DNA of 64,000 nt from a virus, in UHGV virus genome UHGV-0148165; one strand, written 5' to 3'. The translations under genes were made by a program, and so were the position numbers. Positions 20,774 to 54,264 of the stretch are shown here, piece after piece. How positions within the stretch are numbered: position 1 is the stretch's first letter; each line of letters opens with the position of its first letter. Below the pieces are notes generated by a model. That model searched no databases and was not told the origin of the DNA. It worked only from the letters and a program-made list of their open reading frames with translations.

Positions 20774-20800
20774 ACAACTATCAGCTACGGAGGAGTAAAA

Positions 20801-21064
20801 ATGAAATTTAAATTTTATTACGCTAAACATAAAATTACCGGTGAATTTATTGCATTTACGACTTCAACTACAGATGAAGGAGATATTTTTACTGCAGTAT
20901 TTTTATCAAAATGGGAATCAGATCAACCTTACTTATCATCACGTGAAGATCTCCAACGATTAGTTAATGGAGAATATAATGATTCATGGTCATATTTAGT
21001 CCATGATTGTGTTAAAAAGGCAATAAAACAAAAACACTTGGAAATCGTTGAGATTGAACTATGA
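20801..21064 (+). CDS. hypothetical protein, 87 aa
   Basis: ATG after GGAGGAGTAAAA. Confidence 0.5.
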   Translation: MKFKFYYAKHKITGEFIAFTTSTTDEGDIFTAVFLSKWESDQPYLSSREDLQRLVNGEYNDSWSYLVHDCVKKAIKQKHLEIVEIEL

Positions 21065-27841: not shown

Positions 27842-27872
27842 AGACCCTCCTTTTAGGGGTATTTATTCAAAA

Positions 27873-28670
27873 TTATACTCTTGGACCATATATTACTCCA
27901 ACATTTTGCCAAGTTGGAGCAGATCCTATGACAGCATAACCTGCTGCTCCTCCTGCACCAACCTTTAGAACTTTACCACCATCAGACCAGGCATTTTGTC
28001 CATTTCCTCCGGCATCGCCGCCCTGGCCAGAGTGAGCATTTCCGTATTGGTAACCACCTCCTGGGGCGACGTATGAAGCTGCGCCACCTGAGTAACCACC
28101 GCCACCACCTGGGCCAAATGGTCTTCCGCCACCACCACCAATATCTTGCCAGCGTGCCCCTGAGTGAACACGGTAAGCAATGCCGCCACCACCGCCTCCG
28201 CCACCACAGATTACTCCACCATTGTTAATTCTTAATCGTCCACCAATGTCGTTTTGAATACAATGCCCGCCTTGTTGTCCATTACCATCTCCACCGAAAT
28301 GAGTCCATCCACCTTGTCCACCTCTACCCCACATATGAGCGCCAATAATATTTAACTGAACATATTCATTTGGTGTATCTCCGTACATGAAGAATAAAGG
28401 AACATCTTTAGAATATGATACTAAATCACCTGTAATATTAAACACTATAGGTGCATTACCTGCCTCAAAACATCTATCTCGGAACCATTGACCATTGAAG
28501 TTATGGTCTGCTCCAAGCGTGTGAATAATTTCTCGTGAGCGACCTGCAAATTGACTCATCCAGCAAGGAACACCCAATCTTAATTGACCAGCCGCTTGAC
28601 TCATCCATCGTTGTCCTGTTTCATTTACGGATGAACTACCAATCCAGCCAGGAACTCCAACTACTGCCAT
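27873..28670 (-). CDS. 38: long tail fibre tip adhesin gp38, T2-type, with glycine-rich motifs, 265 aa
   Basis: poly-Gly tracts (GGGGGGGG, GGGGG) between variable segments; N-terminus [13 protein letters not shown]...; downstream of gene 37. Confidence 0.8.
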
Positions 28671-28704
28671 AATTTATCTCCAAAGGGGGCGTTGCCCCTT
28701 GTTG

Positions 28705-31700
28705 TTAGAATTTAAAATATTTACTAATTTTGCGAGCAATTTTAGTGAAGAAAGGCGTTTTTAATTCTTTAATTTCTTCACTCATTTCCTGAATGGCCTT
28801 AATTAAAAGAGCATTCACAGCGGAGTTAGAAATTGTCAGAACTTCGTCTGGTTTATCAAGATTGCCAATTTTCGAAATATTAATCGCTTCTGGTAATATT
28901 TCTTGTAAATCCTGTGCGATAATGCCGATCTCATGACCGATAATTTCACGGTCCTTAAGAGATTTAACTTTATCGTAAGTTTTCACTTTCAGTTTACCAA
29001 TCAAACTTAACGCATTTCCGGTATAATCTTCTATATTGTCTTTAAGGCGACGGTCTGATCGAATATAAACATCGTTAAAGTTTCCGTTGCCACTGGCATC
29101 AAAGCTCCCATTTGCATGGAATTGATAATCAGCAGCCTGAACATGAAGAATCGCTGTCGCAGTATTATTACTATCACCGGGACAATGAACGTCCAGAGCA
29201 GCGATGAAGTTACGCCCCCAATCAACCGCTTTCCAAATAGCATGAGCACTATTAACGCTTTGTTGACAGTCAAGCAACAAACCAGCAGGGCGATCTCTCC
29301 AATTCACATAAGCACCACCAGAAACTTCACCGCGAATAAGCCCTTGATCTCCGGCATAAGGAACACGCTCTCCCACTTTAATCATTGCACCCTGGAAGTG
29401 ATGACTAAATGAACCCCCATGATTATTTCGTATATGTAAAATACTATCATCGGTCGCCCAAATAACAGCCTTTTCTGTATCGCTGCTATCTCTAAACCAG
29501 ATATGGCGAGCACCAGTAGAGGTTTTGATAGTAATCCCGGAAGGTCCATGCGCAGTAAAATCGCCAGCAACATCAAACATCAAACTGTTATCTGTCCTGC
29601 GTTCCGTATAGAAGTGATAACCTTTGGAATCACCGACTTCCATCACTGCCGGGCGACCAACTTCTGAATTTCCCCAATTATTAATAGAGAATCGTTCAGA
29701 GCTATTATTCATCTGATTTAGGTATAATGTACCATCAGTGAATGTTTCGCCAAAGAAACGAGTTTTAATTGCACCTGTCGCTAAAGTACGTTCAGTGGAA
29801 AAATGGGCGCCTTGACTATCTTCTAACTGGATGATGTTATCACGAGCGTTATTGCTATCACCCCAATGGTTAAATTTAAAATAATCTCGTGATCCTAAAC
29901 GTCCGGCGTCAAAAGTCATCGTGCCTTTCATGTTAATATCACCACCAAAAAATGCGGTGAGAGAATCACGTTTTAATTTTAAAACGTTAGCACCACTAGC
30001 ACCACCTAAAGTAACATCACCAGTTCTTAATTCATAACGGAAAGGTCTATTTGTATTAAAGTTTCCATCTTGATCATCTTCGTCGGTGGAAAGAATATAA
30101 AGACTCTCTCCATCATTACGTAAAAATGTACCAAATTTTCCGCCATACATACGGAATGCATTCAACGAGCGGAATTTAACTTCTGTTTTAAATGTGGTAG
30201 TGTTATTAACTTTAACAGTAGAGTTAAAGTTAACTGCGCCATTAAAATCTTGTTTAGCAGTCCAAGTATGTGATCCGTCTTCAAGAACAACGCGTCGAAC
30301 TGTACATGTTCTACTCCCTGGATTACCGAATACACGAACGACAAAATAACGATAGTTTGTCTGGGATACAGTTCCACGCCAAACCTGAACAGTACGTCCT
30401 GTGCTGGTGTGCTCGCTAGGACCAACAGAAAACATAATTAAGTTTCCGTCAATCGTACCCCAATCCATATTAGCTGGCATGTTCTTTATTTTGTTCAAAG
30501 GAACGCTAAACATACTACCAGGAACAAAATCAAATGCTTGCCAGTCTAACTCTGCTAAGTTAGATTTAATACCACCCATACCCAAAGTAATTGGAAGAGA
30601 GTAAGATGTATATACTTCGTTCCATGTACCCCAAACACCGCCGGTGTATGCGCGCTCAAAAATACGATCGCGGGTAGTTGCACCTGTTCCGGCAGTAGTA
30701 AATTTTTGGAAAATAGCACCACCAGAAGCACGCTGTTTAACTTCCAGCAAACCAACAATAACGGCTGGTAAACCTTCGCCTGTAGGACAATTAATAACGG
30801 CATCAGTGCCTAAAATATTATATAACCCAGGAGTTTTAAAATCATTCAGATCTCCGTCATAGAAAGTCGCTGGTGTGACATTACCGACTTGTTGCCACGG
30901 TCCCCATTTAGGCGCAGAAGCATCCCACGCAGCAGTAAGACAGCGAGTATAAACAACACCAAATCTGGTCGTATATCTCTGTGTGCGAGAATAGTTTCCA
31001 CCTTCAAATATTTCTAAAAATCCTTGTGCGGCTGATCCTTTTTCTGGATAATGGCGATCAAATGATGCGATTGCGCTTGAACTGTTTCGCCATAAGCCAC
31101 AATGTTCTAATTCTCCCAAGCTATCAAGGTCAATCGTTTGTGAAAGTGGACGAGTTGACGCTTGAACATTACGCCACACACCCCATGGACCATCGACGCC
31201 ATTCCATTTAGCAGATAAGGAACGAATATAGACGTTACCAGATCTTACAGTATAACGCTGAGTGCCAGCAAATTGGCCGGCCACAAACACTTCTAGTACA
31301 CCTACGGCATTTTCTTCTGGGAATTTATTTGCTGGTTGCGCATTTGTTGAAGTAGATTTCGACCAAACACCAAGATATTCTTCAACAGGCCCATACGTAT
31401 CTAAATTAGCATCAGTAGGTAATTCGCCATTATTTTTTATAAATGTTGTGCTATTGACATTTATGTCAGATGGAGTTAGCGTGATATCTTTTGACCCATC
31501 AAAAGATATACCATTAATTTTCCTAGGTGTTTGCAATTTAGTAGCTGTGCTAGAATTTCCAATTAAAGTTCCAGTTATATTTTCTGTAACCTCTAAAGAC
31601 CCATTTATAGTTCCTCCATATTTTAAACCTAATTCTATAACACTACCTGAGTCATCTTTTGTGAAAATTGTTTTATCTTTTAAGTTTATAGCCAATTCAC

Positions 31701-31787: not shown

Positions 31788-32438
31788 TTAATAATAGCCG
31801 AAATCTTGAACAGAATCCTTAATTACGATTTGGTCAAATCGTGGAACGTGTGAAGGTTGAGATGCAGGATTCTGTGAAAAAAGGTTTGGCGCAGTTAAAT
31901 TTCCTGTCATAGTGTCTCCAGAGCGTAATACCCTAGAGTTTGCATTTGCTGTAACAGTATTTATTGCTCCATCAACATAATCTTTACGAGTAGCATCTGA
32001 TGCTGCGGAAGGAGTAGATGTAACAGTTACAGATGGAGCCGTTACAGCTTTGGTAAATGTTGTCAAACCTTCTGGCGTAATAGTAATTTGTCCAGTAGTG
32101 ATTTCACTACCTGCTGGTCTAAAACTAATACCGCCAGAAGAGCCACCAACTACAAGAGTATTACCAGTGCCGCCACCAGAACGAATTCGGATGGGGGTTT
32201 CATTATTACTTAATTGAAGATAACTATTTACACCATAATTAATAGTAACTGGGCCTGTGTAAGTACCACCAGTAGATTTAGAAACGAAATCATTATCAGC
32301 TGCCTGTGGTTTATTATATTCTGAATATATTTTAAATGATTTGTAGAGTACATCGTCACCGGCTGAATTCAACGGAAAATTTCCTTGATGCCAAATGACA
32401 GATCCACCTACAGTTGAACCTACTTTTAAATCAGCCAT
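31788..32438 (-). CDS. 36: long tail fibre hinge protein gp36, 216 aa
   Basis: size and position between genes 35 and 37. Confidence 0.8.
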
Positions 32439-39760: not shown

Positions 39761-39768
39761 TTGCTTAT

Positions 39769-39776
39769 TATAAATA
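39769..39776 (+). promoter_or_regulatory. late promoter TATAAATA upstream of gene 32
   Basis: exact TATAAATA in the 59-32 intergenic region. Confidence 0.45.
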
Positions 39777-39793
39777 GATTATAATTATCTCAC

Positions 39794-39825
39794 TGACCAG
39801 CTATGAGGTCATACATCGTCATAGC
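39794..39825 (+). promoter_or_regulatory. gene 32 translational operator, H-type RNA pseudoknot
   Basis: TGACC...GGTCA stem 1 interleaved with GCTATG...CATAGC stem 2, followed by AU-rich unstructured tract up to the ATG. Confidence 0.7.
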
Positions 39826-41965: not shown

Positions 41966-42994
<1,029 letters not shown>

Positions 42995-42995
<1 letters not shown>

Positions 42996-43543
42996 TGAAA
43001 CAATACCAATTTTTAATTAAAGATATCCTGGAAAATGGCTACGAAACCGATGACCGAACAGGCACAGGAACAATTGCTTTGTTCGGTACTAAATTACGCT
43101 GGGATTTAACTAAAGGTTTTCCTGCAGTAACAACTAAGAAGCTCGCCTGGAAAGCTTGCATTGCTGAGCTAATATGGTTTTTATCGGGAAGCACAAATGT
43201 CAATGATTTACGATTAATTCAGCATGATTCGTTAATCCAAGGCAAAACAGTCTGGGATGAAAATTACGAAAATCAAGCAAAAGATTTAGGATACCATAGC
43301 GGTGAACTTGGTCCAATTTATGGAAAACAATGGCGCGATTTTGGCGGTGTAGACCAAATTATAGAAGTTGTTGATCGTATTAAAAAATTGCCAAATGATA
43401 GGCGTCAAATTGTTTCAGCATGGAATCCAGCTGAACTCAAGCAGATGGCATTACCGCCTTGTCATATGTTCTATCAGTTTAATGTGCGTAATGGCTATTT
43501 GGATTTGCAGTGGTATCAACGATCAGTAGATGTTTTCTTGGGT
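42995..43543 (+). CDS. td: thymidylate synthase, exon 1 (183 codons)
   Basis: MKQYQFLIKDILENGYETDDRTGTGT...; reading frame hits TAA at the first intron codon. Confidence 0.9.
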
Positions 43544-44559
43544 TAATTGAGGCCTGAGTATAAGGTGACTTATACTTGTAATCTATCTAAACGGGGAACC
43601 TCTCTAGTAGACAATCCCGTGCTAAATTGTAGGACTGCCCTTTAATAAATACTTCTATATTTAAAGAGGTATTTATGAAAAGCGGAATTTATCAGATTAA
43701 AAATACTTTAAACAATAAAGTATATGTAGGAAGTGCTAAAGATTTTGAAAAGAGATGGAAGAGGCATTTTAAAGATTTAGAAAAAGGATGCCATTCTTCT
43801 ATAAAGCTTCAGAGGTCTTTTAACAAACATGGTAATGTGTTTGAATGTTCTATTTTGGAAGAAATTCCATATGAGAAAGATTTGATTATTGAACGAGAAA
43901 ATTTTTGGATTAAAGAGCTTAATTCTAAAATTAATGGATACAATATTGCTGATGCAACGTTTGGTGATACATGTTCTACGCATCCATTAAAAGAAGAAAT
44001 TATTAAGAAACGTTCTGAAACTGTTAAAGCTAAGATGCTTAAACTTGGACCTGATGGTCGGAAAGCTCTTTACAGTAAACCCGGAAGTAAAAACGGGCGT
44101 TGGAATCCAGAAACCCATAAGTTTTGTAAGTGCGGTGTTCGCATACAAACTTCTGCTTATACTTGTAGTAAATGCAGAAATCGTTCAGGTGAAAATAATT
44201 CATTCTTTAATCATAAGCATTCAGACATAACTAAATCTAAAATATCAGAAAAGATGAAAGGTAAAAAGCCTAGTAATATTAAAAAGATTTCATGTGATGG
44301 GGTTATTTTTGATTGTGCAGCAGATGCAGCTAGACATTTTAAAATTTCGTCTGGATTAGTTACTTATCGTGTAAAATCTGATAAATGGAATTGGTTCTAC
44401 ATAAATGCCTAACGACTATCCCTTTGGGGAGTAGGGTCAAGTGACTCGAAACGATAGACAACTTGCTTTAACAAGTTGGAGATATAGTCTGATCTGCATG
44501 GTGACATGCAGCTGGATATAATTCCGGGGTAAGATTAACGACCTTATCTGAACATAATG
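43544..44559 (+). mobile_element. group I self-splicing intron in td, 1016 nt, carrying I-TevI
   Basis: exon 1 ends GGT, intron starts TAATTGAGGCCTGAGTATAAGGTG, conserved core GTAGGGTCAAGTGACTCGAAA, intron ends ...AACATAATG; exons rejoin in frame. Confidence 0.9.
43675..44412 (+). CDS. GIY-YIG homing endonuclease I-TevI, 245 aa
   Basis: GIY-YIG motif IYQIKNTLNNKVYVGSAKDFEKR; C-terminal zinc finger and DNA-binding region; inside td intron. Confidence 0.9.
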   Translation: MKSGIYQIKNTLNNKVYVGSAKDFEKRWKRHFKDLEKGCHSSIKLQRSFNKHGNVFECSILEEIPYEKDLIIERENFWIKELNSKINGYNIADATFGDTCSTHPLKEEIIKKRSETVKAKMLKLGPDGRKALYSKPGSKNGRWNPETHKFCKCGVRIQTSAYTCSKCRNRSGENNSFFNHKHSDITKSKISEKMKGKKPSNIKKISCDGVIFDCAADAARHFKISSGLVTYRVKSDKWNWFYINA

Positions 44560-44871
44560 CTACCATTTAATATTGCATCATATGCTACGTTAGTTCATAT
44601 TGTAGCTAAGATGTGTAATCTTATTCCGGGAGATTTGATATTTTCCGGTGGTAATACTCATATCTATATGAATCACGTAGAACAATGTAAAGAAATTTTA
44701 CGTCGTGAACCTAAAGAGCTTTGTGAACTGGTAATAGGCGGATTGCCTTATAAATTCCGCTATCTTTCTACTAAAGAACAATTGGAATACATTCTTAAAC
44801 TCAGGCCTAAAGATTTCGTTCTCAAAGATTATCAGTCCCACGGCGTCTTGAAAGGAAAAATGGCGGTGTAA
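44560..44871 (+). CDS. td: thymidylate synthase, exon 2 (103 codons)
   Basis: LPFNIASYATLVHIVAKMCNLIPGD... continues the TS fold. Confidence 0.9.
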   Translation, partial: LPFNIASYATLVHIVAKMCNLIPGDLIFSGGNTHIYMNHVEQCKEILRREPKELCELVIGGLPYKFRYLSTKEQLEYILKLRPKDFVLKDYQSHGVLKGKMAV

Positions 44872-45438: not shown

Positions 45439-47693
45439 TTAATGTTATCAAAAGTAGTGGTGTTTCTCAGAGCTTTGACCCGCAAAAAATTATTAAAGTT
45501 TTATCTTGGGCAGCTGAAGGAACATCAGTAGATCCTTATGAATTATATGAAAATATTAAATCTTATCTCCGTGATGGAATGACAACTGATGATATTCAGA
45601 CTATTGTCATTAAGGCCGCTGCGAATTCTATTTCGGTTGAAGAGCCTGATTATCAATATGTAGCTGCACGCTGTTTAATGTTCGCTCTTCGTAAGCATGT
45701 TTATGGGCAGTATGAACCACGTTCATTTATTGACCATATTTCTTACTGTGTAAATGAAGGTAAATATGACCCTGAATTGTTGTCAAAATATTCAGCAGAA
45801 GAAATTACATTTTTAGAATCAAAAATTAAGCACGAGCGGGATATGGAATTTACTTATTCCGGAGCGATGCAATTAAAAGAAAAATATCTAGTCAAAGATA
45901 AAACCACCGGTCAAATTTATGAAACTCCGCAGTTTGCATTTATGACTATTGGAATGGCATTGCATCAAGATGAACCTGTTGATAGACTAAAACACGTTAT
46001 CCGTTTTTATGAAGCAGTATCTACTCGACAGATTTCATTGCCAACTCCTATTATGGCTGGTTGCCGTACTCCGACTCGACAGTTTAGTTCATGTGTTGTT
46101 ATTGAGGCAGGAGATTCATTGAAGTCTATCAATAAGGCTTCCGCTTCAATTGTTGAATATATCTCTAAACGCGCTGGAATTGGTATTAACGTTGGTATGA
46201 TTCGTGCCGAAGGTTCTAAGATTGGCATGGGTGAAGTACGCCATACTGGTGTTATTCCTTTTTGGAAACATTTTCAGACTGCAGTTAAATCATGTTCACA
46301 GGGTGGAATTCGTGGCGGCGCTGCTACTGCTTATTATCCTATTTGGCATTTGGAAGTTGAAAATCTTCTCGTTTTGAAAAATAACAAAGGCGTAGAAGAA
46401 AACCGCATTCGTCATATGGATTATGGTGTTCAACTGAATGATTTGATGATGGAACGTTTTGGAAAGAACGATTACATTACTTTGTTCAGTCCCCATGAAA
46501 TGGGTGGAGAGCTTTATTATTCTTATTTTAAAGACCAAGACCGTTTCCGTGAATTATACGAAGCAGCAGAAAAAGACCCTAATATTCGTAAAAAGCGTAT
46601 TAAAGCCCGTGAACTATTTGAATTGCTCATGACTGAACGTTCAGGAACAGCAAGGATTTATGTACAGTTCATTGATAATACGAATAACTATACTCCGTTT
46701 ATTCGTGAAAAGGCACCTATTCGTCAGAGTAACTTGTGCTGTGAAATTGCTATTCCAACAAATGATGTGAATAGTCCTGATGCTGAAATTGGATTGTGTA
46801 CTCTCTCTGCATTCGTACTAGATAATTTTGACTGGCAAGACCAAGATAAAATTAATGAATTGGCAGAAGTTCAAGTTCGTGCTCTTGATAATCTTTTGGA
46901 TTACCAAGGATATCCAGTTCCTGAAGCAGAAAAAGCTAAAAAGCGTCGTAACCTTGGCGTAGGTGTTACCAACTATGCAGCTTGGCTGGCAAGTAACTTT
47001 GCTTCTTATGAAGATGCTAACGATTTAACACATGAACTATTTGAGAGATTACAGTATGGACTCATTAAAGCATCCATTAAGCTCGCCAAAGAAAAAGGAC
47101 CTTGCGAATATTATTCAGACACTCGTTGGTCTCGAGGCGAATTACCTATCGACTGGTACAATAAAAAGATTGACCAAATCGCAGCTCCAAAATACGTTTG
47201 TGACTGGTCGTCGCTGCGGGAAGACCTCAAGCTCTTTGGCATCCGTAATAGCACATTATCAGCACTTATGCCATGTGAGTCATCTTCCCAAGTTTCTAAC
47301 AGTACAAACGGTATCGAGCCTCCACGTGGACCGGTAAGTGTTAAAGAATCAAAAGAGGGTTCCTTTAATCAAGTCGTGCCCAATATTGAGCATAACATAG
47401 ACCTCTATGATTATACGTGGAAATTAGCTAAGAAAGGTAATAAACCTTATCTTACACAGGTAGCTATTATGCTGAAATGGGTATGTCAATCAGCTTCAGC
47501 GAATACATACTATGACCCGCAAATTTTTCCAAAAGGAAAGGTTCCAATGTCAATAATGATTGATGACATGCTATATGGATGGTATTATGGCATTAAAAAT
47601 TTCTATTATCATAATACCCGTGATGGTTCTGGTACTGATGATTATGAAATAGAAACTCCAAAAGCTGAAGATTGTTCATCCTGTAAATTATGA
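45429..47693 (+). CDS. nrdA: ribonucleotide reductase large subunit NrdA, 754 aa
   Basis: N-terminal ATP-cone, class I RNR catalytic core; length matches T4 NrdA. Confidence 0.9.
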   Translation: MQLINVIKSSGVSQSFDPQKIIKVLSWAAEGTSVDPYELYENIKSYLRDGMTTDDIQTIVIKAAANSISVEEPDYQYVAARCLMFALRKHVYGQYEPRSFIDHISYCVNEGKYDPELLSKYSAEEITFLESKIKHERDMEFTYSGAMQLKEKYLVKDKTTGQIYETPQFAFMTIGMALHQDEPVDRLKHVIRFYEAVSTRQISLPTPIMAGCRTPTRQFSSCVVIEAGDSLKSINKASASIVEYISKRAGIGINVGMIRAEGSKIGMGEVRHTGVIPFWKHFQTAVKSCSQGGIRGGAATAYYPIWHLEVENLLVLKNNKGVEENRIRHMDYGVQLNDLMMERFGKNDYITLFSPHEMGGELYYSYFKDQDRFRELYEAAEKDPNIRKKRIKARELFELLMTERSGTARIYVQFIDNTNNYTPFIREKAPIRQSNLCCEIAIPTNDVNSPDAEIGLCTLSAFVLDNFDWQDQDKINELAEVQVRALDNLLDYQGYPVPEAEKAKKRRNLGVGVTNYAAWLASNFASYEDANDLTHELFERLQYGLIKASIKLAKEKGPCEYYSDTRWSRGELPIDWYNKKIDQIAAPKYVCDWSSLREDLKLFGIRNSTLSALMPCESSSQVSNSTNGIEPPRGPVSVKESKEGSFNQVVPNIEHNIDLYDYTWKLAKKGNKPYLTQVAIMLKWVCQSASANTYYDPQIFPKGKVPMSIMIDDMLYGWYYGIKNFYYHNTRDGSGTDDYEIETPKAEDCSSCKL

Positions 47694-47744
47694 TATAATT
47701 TGACTCATGGACGAGTCACTATCTATTAACTAAGTGGAAAATTT

Positions 47745-48420
47745 ATGAGCACAGTTTTTAATACAAACCCAGTTGATGTTTTAAAAGAACCTATGTTTTT
47801 TGGTTCAGGTCTTGGTATTGCGCGTTATGATATTCAACGCCATAAAGTTTTTGAAGATTTGACCGAAAAGCAATTGTCATTTTTCTGGCGTCCTGAAGAA
47901 GTAAACTTAATGATGGATGCTGCACAGTTTAATAAGCTTCCTCAGTATCAGCAAAATATTTTTACTAATAACCTGAAGTATCAATCACTTTTGGATAGCA
48001 TTCAGGGTCGTGCGCCATCTGCTGTACTTATGTCATTAATTTCAGACCCGAGTCTTGATACATGGGTTGCTACATGGACTTTTAGTGAAACTATTCACAG
48101 CCGTTCATATACACATATCATGCGAAATCTTTATACTGATCCATCGAAGGTATTTGATGAGATTGTATTAGATGAAGCTATTATGAAACGTGCTGAATCC
48201 ATTGGACGCTATTATGATGACGTTCTGATTAAAACCCGTGAATGGGAAAATGCTAAAGAATTTGTAGAACTAGCTAAAGAATCTCCTGATGCTGTCTTTC
48301 GTTTAAACCGAGCTATTAAACAAGAAGCCGAAGCTAAACGTGCTTTAATGAAATCTCTTTACCTCTGTTTGCACGTTATTAATGCCTTAGAAGCAATTCG
48401 TTTTTATGTATCTTTTGCGT
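47745..48420 (+). CDS. nrdB: ribonucleotide reductase small subunit NrdB, exon 1
   Basis: ends ...LEAIRFYVSFA + first base of Cys codon; frame then hits TAA in the intron. Confidence 0.85.
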
Positions 48421-49510
48421 AAAATGCGCCTTTAAACGGTAACGTTTATCGAAAACTCCTTTAATTGCTGGAAAGTCCTTTATAGGAAAACTAGCAGCCA
48501 AGGTTTTGCTTGCACCTTTAATTAGTATAATATAAATATGATTATACTTTTAAGAGGATGCACAATTGAACTATAGAAAAATTTGGATAGATGCTAACGG
48601 ACCTATACCTAAAGATTCTGATGGAAGAACATACGAAATCCATCATAAAGACGGTAACCGTGAAAATAATGATTTAGATAATTTGATGTGCCTTTCTATA
48701 CAGGAACATTATGATATACATTTAGCTCAAAAAGATTACCAGGCTTGTCATGCTATAAAGCTTAGAATGAAATATTCTCCTGAAGAAATTTCTGAATTAG
48801 CTTCTAAAGCCGCAAAATCTAGAGAAATCCAGATTTTTAATATCCCTGAAGTACGAGCTAAAAATATTGCCTCTATTAAATCTAAGATAGAAAATGGTAC
48901 ATTTCATCTTTTAGATGGTGAAATACAGCGTAAATCTAATTTAAATAGAGCTGCATTAGGTATACATAATTTTCAACAAGCTGAGCATATTGCAAAAGTT
49001 AAAGAACGCAATATTGCAGCTATAAAAGAAGGTACTCATGTATTTTGCGGTGGTAAAATGCAGTCAGAAACTCAATCAAAACGGGTAAATGACGGTTCAC
49101 ATCATTTCTTATCAGAAGACCATAAGAAAAGAACATCAGCAAAAACATTAGAAATGGTTAAGAACGGGACCCATCCTGCACAAAAAGAAATCACATGTGA
49201 TTTCTGTGGTCACATTGGTAAAAGTCCTGGATTTTATCTAAAACATAATGACAGATGTAAATTAAATCCAAATAGAATTCAATTGAATTGTCCATATTGT
49301 GATAAGAAAGATTTATCACCATCAACATATAAACGATGGCACGGCGACAATTGCAAAACAAGGTTCAACGACTAGTCTTCGGACGTAGGGTCAAGCGACT
49401 CGAAATGGGGAGAATCCCTCCGGGATTGTGATATAGTCTGGACTGCATGGTAACATGCAGCAGTTCATAAGAGAACGGGTTGAGAATTAGCGAGCTCAAT
49501 CGAACATACG
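48421..49510 (+). mobile_element. group I self-splicing intron in nrdB, 1090 nt, carrying a full-length HNH endonuclease gene
   Basis: exon 1 ends with U, intron ends with G 49510; shares core GTAGGGTCAAGCGACTCGAAA and 3' CTGCATGGTAACATGCAG with the td intron; exons rejoin to ...SFACTFNFHKNMEIMEGNAK. Confidence 0.8.
48566..49375 (+). CDS. HNH homing endonuclease (I-TevIII-like), 269 aa, TTG start
   Basis: HNH motif EIHHKDGNRENNDLDNLMCLSIQEH; C-terminal Cys-rich zinc-finger-like region; inside nrdB intron; AAGAGG 8 nt upstream of TTG. Confidence 0.8.
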   Translation: MNYRKIWIDANGPIPKDSDGRTYEIHHKDGNRENNDLDNLMCLSIQEHYDIHLAQKDYQACHAIKLRMKYSPEEISELASKAAKSREIQIFNIPEVRAKNIASIKSKIENGTFHLLDGEIQRKSNLNRAALGIHNFQQAEHIAKVKERNIAAIKEGTHVFCGGKMQSETQSKRVNDGSHHFLSEDHKKRTSAKTLEMVKNGTHPAQKEITCDFCGHIGKSPGFYLKHNDRCKLNPNRIQLNCPYCDKKDLSPSTYKRWHGDNCKTRFND

Positions 49511-50013
49511 GTACCTTTAACTTCCATAAAAACATGGAAATCATGGAAGGTAATGCCAAGATTATGAAGTTCATTGCACGCGATGAACAGCTTCACCTTA
49601 AAGGCACCCAATATATTATTCGTCAACTTCAATCTGGTACTGATGGCGATGAATGGGTTAAAATTGCTCAAGAGTGTGAACAAGAAGCAGTTGATATTTT
49701 CATGGAAGTTAACCGCCAAGAAAAAGATTGGGCAGTTCATTTATTTAAAGATGGCGATGTTCCTGGATTAAATACAAATAGCATGTGGAGCTTTATTGAT
49801 TACTTAACTGTATCTCGTATGAAACAGTGCGGTCTTCCATGCCCAATTACCGATGCTCCGGTTAAACATCCATATCCTTGGATTCGTGAATATCTTAATT
49901 CTGATAATGTTCAATCCGCGCCACAAGAAGTAGAACTGTCATCTTATCTTGTTGCACAGATTGATAATGATGTTGATGATAAAGTTATGATGAGTTTTAA
50001 AAAATACTTTTAA
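49511..50013 (+). CDS. nrdB: ribonucleotide reductase small subunit NrdB, exon 2
   Basis: MEGNAKIMKFIARDEQLHLKGTQ... conserved RNR R2 region. Confidence 0.85.

Positions 50014-53063: not shown

Positions 53064-54264
<1,201 letters not shown>

Follow-up and report, generated by a model that had tools for sequence, protein, structure and literature searches.

The td gene of the viral genome UHGV-0148165 raises the question of what parts its two halves, a 1016-nt insert at positions 43544-44559 of the 64,000-nt stretch of DNA that we analysed (the window). An initial annotation, made from the sequence, had named the insert a td group I intron with the I-TevI gene. Synteny, identity to T4, group I structure, the insertion point and the protein domains all agree with this identification, and we regard it as close to certain that the insert is a self-splicing group I intron of class IA, namely the td intron of a T4-like phage with the I-TevI gene inside it. 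The coordinates and the length of 1016 nt held at every position that had been given. The td exons, the intron and the features described within them lie on the plus strand of the window, unless the minus strand is named.

The source DNA is the genome of a T4-like phage (Tequatrovirus). The td region matched 671 phage records, mostly of T4-like phages of Escherichia, Shigella and Yersinia, with the best matches over the whole region reaching 99.3% identity (SHFML-26, PYPS2T), and the gene order frd, td, nrdA.2, nrdA.1, nrdA, nrdB is collinear with that of T4, on the opposite strand. No record of the same phage was found among deposited genomes, the best match to the whole window being 98.5% identical over 24 kb.

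Several local departures from T4 accompany this collinearity. Next to td, an ORF of 68 aa (42789-42995) fills 201 nt that are inserted between frd and td and absent from T4, in which the two genes overlap directly; the stop of the ORF overlaps the td start (TAATG), its TAA running into the ATG at 42995. This ORF had no Pfam match, corresponds over its full length to PHROG 9550 (unknown function, E = 1e-45) and is labelled 'hypothetical protein' in fFiEco06, C2-3 and CE1. The window also lacks two of the free-standing homing endonuclease genes that T4 carries: about 35 nt lie between genes 59 and 32 (window 39761-39797) in place of segG (T4 147909-148541), and about 55 nt lie between nrdA and nrdB (window 47689-47745) in place of mobE together with nrdB.1 (T4 139716-140416). 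At the pseT/pseT.1 junction (window 53067-53361), about 295 nt are inserted relative to T4. Window positions 27866-31625, the counterpart of the distal tail-fibre genes 37/38, gave no blastn match to T4, and neither did two stretches of about 250 nt at 20791-21039 (between denB and ndd.6) and 31992-32260 (gene 36 region).

The coding sequence on either side of the insert is intact. Exon 1 of td, the thymidylate synthase gene, spans 42995-43543 (549 nt, 183 codons, 28 differences from T4 exon 1) and ends in ...QRSVDVFLG, its last bases being ...TTCTTGGGT (TTC TTG GGT), and exon 2 spans 44560-44871 (312 nt, 37 differences from T4 exon 2), opens with CTACCATTT and encodes LPFNIASY...KMAV followed by a stop codon. 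The bases thus read as annotated, both where exon 1 had been said to end in GGT at 43543 and where exon 2 had been said to begin with LPFN. In the ORF list, the exon 1 frame stops at the TAA of 43544-43546, the first three bases of the intron. Joining the two exons yields 861 nt encoding 286 aa in one frame, and this product matched the Pfam family Thymidylat_synt (PF00303) with 315 bits (E = 4e-94) across profile positions 1-266 of 266, whereas either exon by itself encodes an incomplete domain. Of the 286 residues, 14 differ from the T4 protein. The apparent ATG at 44557 had been explained as the last three intron nucleotides and not a start; the ORF call does begin on those bases, and the ATG is not to be taken as a start codon. 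The gene is best annotated as one joined CDS (42995..43543, 44560..44871) and not, as in many relatives, as two 'thymidylate synthase' fragments.

Placing the boundaries takes more than the protein. The insert starts at 43544 with TAATTGAGGCCTGAGTATAAGGTG and ends at 44559 with ...CTGAACATAATG, and it falls between the Gly and Leu codons of the uninterrupted T2 gene (...GTTTTTCTTGGT|CTTCCATTTAAT...). If both splice sites are displaced by one nucleotide, to the left (GGG CTA) or to the right (GGT TTA), the product still reads DVFLG-LPFN with its Gly-Leu junction, so protein conservation is no bar to a td intron spliced one nucleotide away from 43544-44559, and after a shift to the right exon 1 would keep a terminal U able to pair with G43551. 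We therefore turned to two rules of group I introns, namely that a U precedes the 5' splice site and lies in a U·G pair of P1, and that the last base of the intron is G. At the annotated sites, U43543 forms a wobble with G43552 within a P1 of seven pairs, and the intron ends in G44559. Shifting to the left leaves exon 1 ending in G and the intron in U, breaking both rules, and shifting to the right leaves an intron ending in C, breaking the second. Since only splicing after U43543 and after G44559 satisfies both, the boundaries are fixed at these positions. In the same line, of the three candidate products GGT|CTA comes nearest to the GGT|CTT of T2. Around both junctions, the sequence is the same as in T4, whose td junction is said to have been mapped experimentally in the 1980s (by Chu/Belfort in 1986). 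Together, these points make a displacement by one nucleotide in either direction very improbable. The claim that the boundaries were resolved to the nucleotide hence stands by the group I rules; the protein alone is insufficient for it. The predicted cDNA junctions are GGGTCTACC for the annotated sites, GGGCTACC-type for sites one nucleotide to the left and GGGTTTACC for sites one nucleotide to the right. The in-frame TAA and the P1/P10 dependence of the td intron have been described (PMC8565351).

Aligned with T4 (NC_000866.4), the td intron of the window occupies the same insertion site and shows three differences over its full length (99.7% identity), in keeping with the initial annotation: the window has one T fewer after ...GTAGGACT (43635/43636), at 43806 it has G where T4 has A, and at 44492 it has A where T4 has C. 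The last of these falls between P7 and P9, 3 nt downstream of P7; A44492 is common to C2-3 and FL18, and A is also the Rfam consensus at this position. The length of 1016 nt had been equated with that of the classical T4 td intron, which is correct for strain T4T (HM137666.1), aligned gap-free over all 1016 nt, and for many relatives, but not for RefSeq T4, in which 1017 nt lie between the exons when these are taken as 549 and 312 nt. The extra T of the RefSeq sequence follows ...GGACT (GGACTTGCCC in T4, GGACTGCCC at window 43635/43636), a place at which strain T4T and every relative examined have the 1016-type spacing. Since T4T is without this T, NC_000866.4 may show either a polymorphism of the strain or a reference error here.

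The insert can adopt a group I core. P1 (43538-43557) pairs exon UUGGGU (43538-43543) and U43544 with the guide GGCCUGA (43551-43557), all seven of its seven pairs being standard or G·U. For the other helices, we folded a mini-intron built from the window by copying the deletion of the ORF-less allele CE1. Its minimum free energy (MFE) fold returned, in the 5' core (43544-43636, from the 3' strand of P1 through the 5' strand of P6a), P2 (43556-43564/43569-43577), P4 (43591-43596/43615-43620) and P5 (43601-43603/43609-43611). Linking this core to the 3' core (44394-44559, from the 3' strands of P6a and P6 to the 3' tail and terminal G), it returned P3 (43582-43587 with 44453-44458, six standard pairs), P6 (43621-43622 with 44407-44408) and P6a (43628-43635 with 44394-44401). 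Within the 3' core followed P7.1 (44419-44422/44427-44430), P7.2 (44434-44438/44443-44447), P8 (44459-44465/44472-44478), P9 (44494-44500/44505-44511) and P9.1 (44512-44516/44523-44527). P1 and P7 were absent from the plain MFE fold, which paired the 5' strand of P1 with 44528-44543 near the 3' end. P7 was missed because it forms a pseudoknot with P3; checked by hand, as was P1, 44414-44419 and 44484-44489 give six standard pairs. The border between P1 and P2 is approximate, since in the MFE fold the lower two pairs of P1 and the base of P2 are in competition. Judged by pairing potential only, then, the P4-P6 and P3-P9 domains can form their helices, and P3 and P7 their pseudoknot, the copies compared being near-identical and their variation too small for covariation. 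Between the 5' strand of P7 and the 3' strand of P3 lie the P7.1 and P7.2 hairpins that place the intron in class IA, and the RefSeq annotation of T4 reads 'group 1A intron in td'.

The Rfam check that the initial annotation had proposed gave a divided answer. Searched at the gathering threshold, the whole window had no match to RF00028, and a permissive search returned 42.5 bits against a cutoff of 50 (E = 3.3e-9, 44281-44511), with only the 3' half aligned correctly. The window falls below the threshold because the 738-nt ORF in the P6a loop parts the two halves of the core. The ORF-less alleles of C2-3 and CE1 pass, with 73.6 and 73.8 bits, respectively (cutoff 50, E about 1e-17). The 5' core, 43544-43636, is identical to those of T4, C2-3 and FL18, and the 3' core differs from that of C2-3 at one position. 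Because the model accepts these ORF-less alleles, whose core is near-identical to that of the window, we rejected the reading that the insert is not a group I intron. Permissive matches to STnc340, snoR66 and other unrelated families had E values of at least 0.3 and were put down to chance. Guanosine-dependent self-splicing is established for the T4 td intron (PMC8565351; PMC2988022), and the 99.7% identity suggests that the intron in the window would splice in the same way.

Looped out of P6a, the I-TevI homing endonuclease gene occupies 43675-44412 (738 nt, 245 aa). Its product matched three Pfam families, GIY-YIG (PF01541, residues 3-90, E = 2e-18), I-TevI_ZnF (PF22635, residues 149-179, E = 1e-20) and I-TevI_DNA-bd (PF20987, residues 192-242, E = 3e-32), and, in the PDB, 1mk0/1ln0 (residues 1-97) and 1i3j (residues 130-245), from which it departs only by the single substitution carried by each chain. 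The translation equals T4 I-TevI (NP_049849.3) residue for residue, bearing out the annotated 245-aa GIY-YIG ORF, and the sole DNA difference from T4 within the ORF, at 43806, is synonymous. According to the fold, the 3' strands of P6a and P6 come from the end of the I-TevI reading frame (...W F Y I N A stop), and the end of the T4 I-TevI gene likewise supplies these strands (PMC2988022). Minus-strand ORFs of up to 68 aa inside the intron overlap the I-TevI gene and were not treated as genes.

The surroundings of this gene hold putative target and control sites. A CNNNG-type cleavage motif, CAACG, lies in exon 1 at 43517-43521, its final G 23 nt upstream of the insertion site, which is the native I-TevI cleavage distance; in published work, I-TevI cuts at 23/25 nt and requires CXXXG (PMC2988022). 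The motif is followed by A in the window and in T2, but by C in T4. Two positions of the binding region GGGT|CTACCATTTAATATTGC, 44565 and 44577, are not the same as in T4. With motif, distance and a spanning binding region present, the locus carries what would be a cognate I-TevI homing site. The I-TevI operator probably lies at 43632-43651, coordinates that we infer from likeness to the homing site: GGACTGCCCTTTAATA (43632-43647) agrees without gaps at 13 of 16 positions with the exon homing site GGGTCTACCATTTAATA (GGGT|CTACCATTTAATA), and the candidate overlaps a late promoter-like AATAAATA (43644-43651). The operator, the late promoter and autorepression by I-TevI have been shown for T4 (PMC2988022), and the 1-nt difference from RefSeq T4 at 43635/43636 falls inside the 5' part of the putative operator. 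Further downstream, 43645-43656 can pair with 43665-43676 in a regulatory-type hairpin (43645-43676) of 12 pairs, the region 43637-43690 having an MFE of -16.4 kcal/mol. This hairpin covers the Shine-Dalgarno GAGG (43666-43669) and the I-TevI start codon, and it may sequester the I-TevI ribosome-binding site in read-through td transcripts, as the T4 hairpin restricts I-TevI translation to late infection (PMC2988022).

An intron of this descent might nevertheless have decayed into a non-splicing or immobile copy, within a td pseudogene or with a dead I-TevI. Such decay is natural in td introns elsewhere, where the I-TevI ORF has been deleted down to introns of 262 nt (vB_EcoM_CE1), 320 nt (vB_EcoM_C2-3) or 445 nt (FL18), and the lack of a match at threshold to Rfam in the window could be taken the same way. 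In the window, however, the ORF is intact and encodes a protein identical to the active T4 I-TevI, both exons are intact and in frame, and A44492 and the T lacking from the P6a/ORF loop are the only departures of the core from RefSeq T4. Both are shared with other deposited phages, and A is the Rfam consensus base at 44492. We thus consider decay highly unlikely. A milder effect, in which the missing T at 43635/43636 and A44492 would alter I-TevI autorepression or splicing efficiency, also seems improbable to us, if a little less remote; were it true, the behaviour of the widespread 1016-nt allele would not be that of the laboratory T4 intron. Least probable, and almost certainly wrong, is the reading as a split td gene that holds no intron, either two td fragments around a free-standing endonuclease gene, as the two 'thymidylate synthase' CDSs flanking a 'homing endonuclease' or 'hypothetical protein' in many automatic annotations would have it, or an intein, for the sequences on either side of the ORF fold as a group I core and are near-identical to the core with which ORF-less alleles pass Rfam, a single exon spans only part of the thymidylate synthase domain, and an insert that opens with TAA and is out of frame with td is not an intein.

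For the td group I intron with I-TevI, the flanking exons provide a further line of evidence. The exons differ from T4 at 65 of 861 nt (7.5%) and the intron at 0.3% (Fisher p = 2e-19), so that exon divergence is about 25 times that of the intron; the exon differences nearest the insertion site are at -22 (43522) and +6 (44565). A near-unchanged intron amid diverged exons is the pattern expected from lateral spread by homing, and the locus is a clean, already well-documented illustration of homing among T-even phages. At least 80% of the intron is present in 197 of 50,697 phage records.

By analogy with published work on T4, splicing chemistry, cleavage, homing and autorepression at this locus would run as follows. 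The td pre-mRNA would fold into the group I core, and an external guanosine would attack after U43543, which P1 holds in its U·G wobble; the end of exon 1 released in this way would then attack after the terminal G44559, joining GGT to CTA and giving the 286-aa thymidylate synthase. Translation of unspliced td RNA would end at the TAA that opens the intron. Late in infection, I-TevI would be expressed from a promoter of its own that lies within the intron, with the hairpin hiding its ribosome-binding site in early transcripts. The enzyme would bind intron-less td alleles across the insertion site and cut at CAACG, 23/25 nt upstream, and in a mixed infection the cut allele would be repaired from the intron-containing copy, so that the intron is copied in. 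By also binding the homing-site-like operator that overlaps its promoter, I-TevI would repress itself.

A second group I intron splits nrdB (window 47745-50013). Its partial match to RF00028 (49220-49460, 36.6 bits, E = 3.5e-7) is under the Rfam cutoff for the same reason as in td, an ORF inside the core. That ORF, 48566-49375, is full-length (269 aa), matched HNH endonuclease families and corresponds end to end to PHROG 12324, 'intron-like DNA endonuclease' (E = 4e-192). I-TevIII in the T4 nrdB intron is truncated and defunct, and the window is about 476 nt longer at this intron; the 269-aa ORF looks like an intact RB3-type I-TevIII.

Among known systems, the closest is the T4 td intron with I-TevI, which was among the first prokaryotic introns described and is a standard model system. 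The T4 locus (td T4p237, I-TevI T4p238) has the same gene, insertion point and architecture of core, ORF in P6a and core. Its intron likewise opens with an in-frame TAA and closes with AUG-G, and its I-TevI protein is identical; it differs by the one additional T in RefSeq (1017 versus 1016 nt), by the substitutions at 43806 and 44492 and by flanking exons that are 7.5% diverged. Closer still are the introns of ZCEC15, SHFML-26, PYPS2T, SHFML-11 and FL23, which, among the matches listed, are 100% identical to that of the window over 1016 nt, all differences lying in the exons. Together with the three differences from RefSeq T4, this identity marks the resemblance as homology and not chance. 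The td intron described here is real, ordinary and already known, being identical to copies deposited for other phages. The other T-even group I introns also interrupt genes of nucleotide metabolism, each with its own endonuclease and with similar promoter/operator logic (PMC2988022). The T4 nrdB intron with I-TevIII and the nrdD intron with I-TevII differ from td in host gene and endonuclease, I-TevIII being an HNH enzyme and I-TevII a GIY-YIG enzyme with a different target. The records of C2-3, CE1 and FL18 annotate td as two separate CDSs. These ORF-less or truncated introns share the insertion site and a near-identical ribozyme core with the copy in the window, which keeps the full ORF, whereas they have lost most or all of I-TevI by different deletions, FL18 retaining the first ~32 and last ~21 codons. 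With 262 to 445 nt, these derivatives show a later stage of the homing cycle, the loss of the endonuclease gene.
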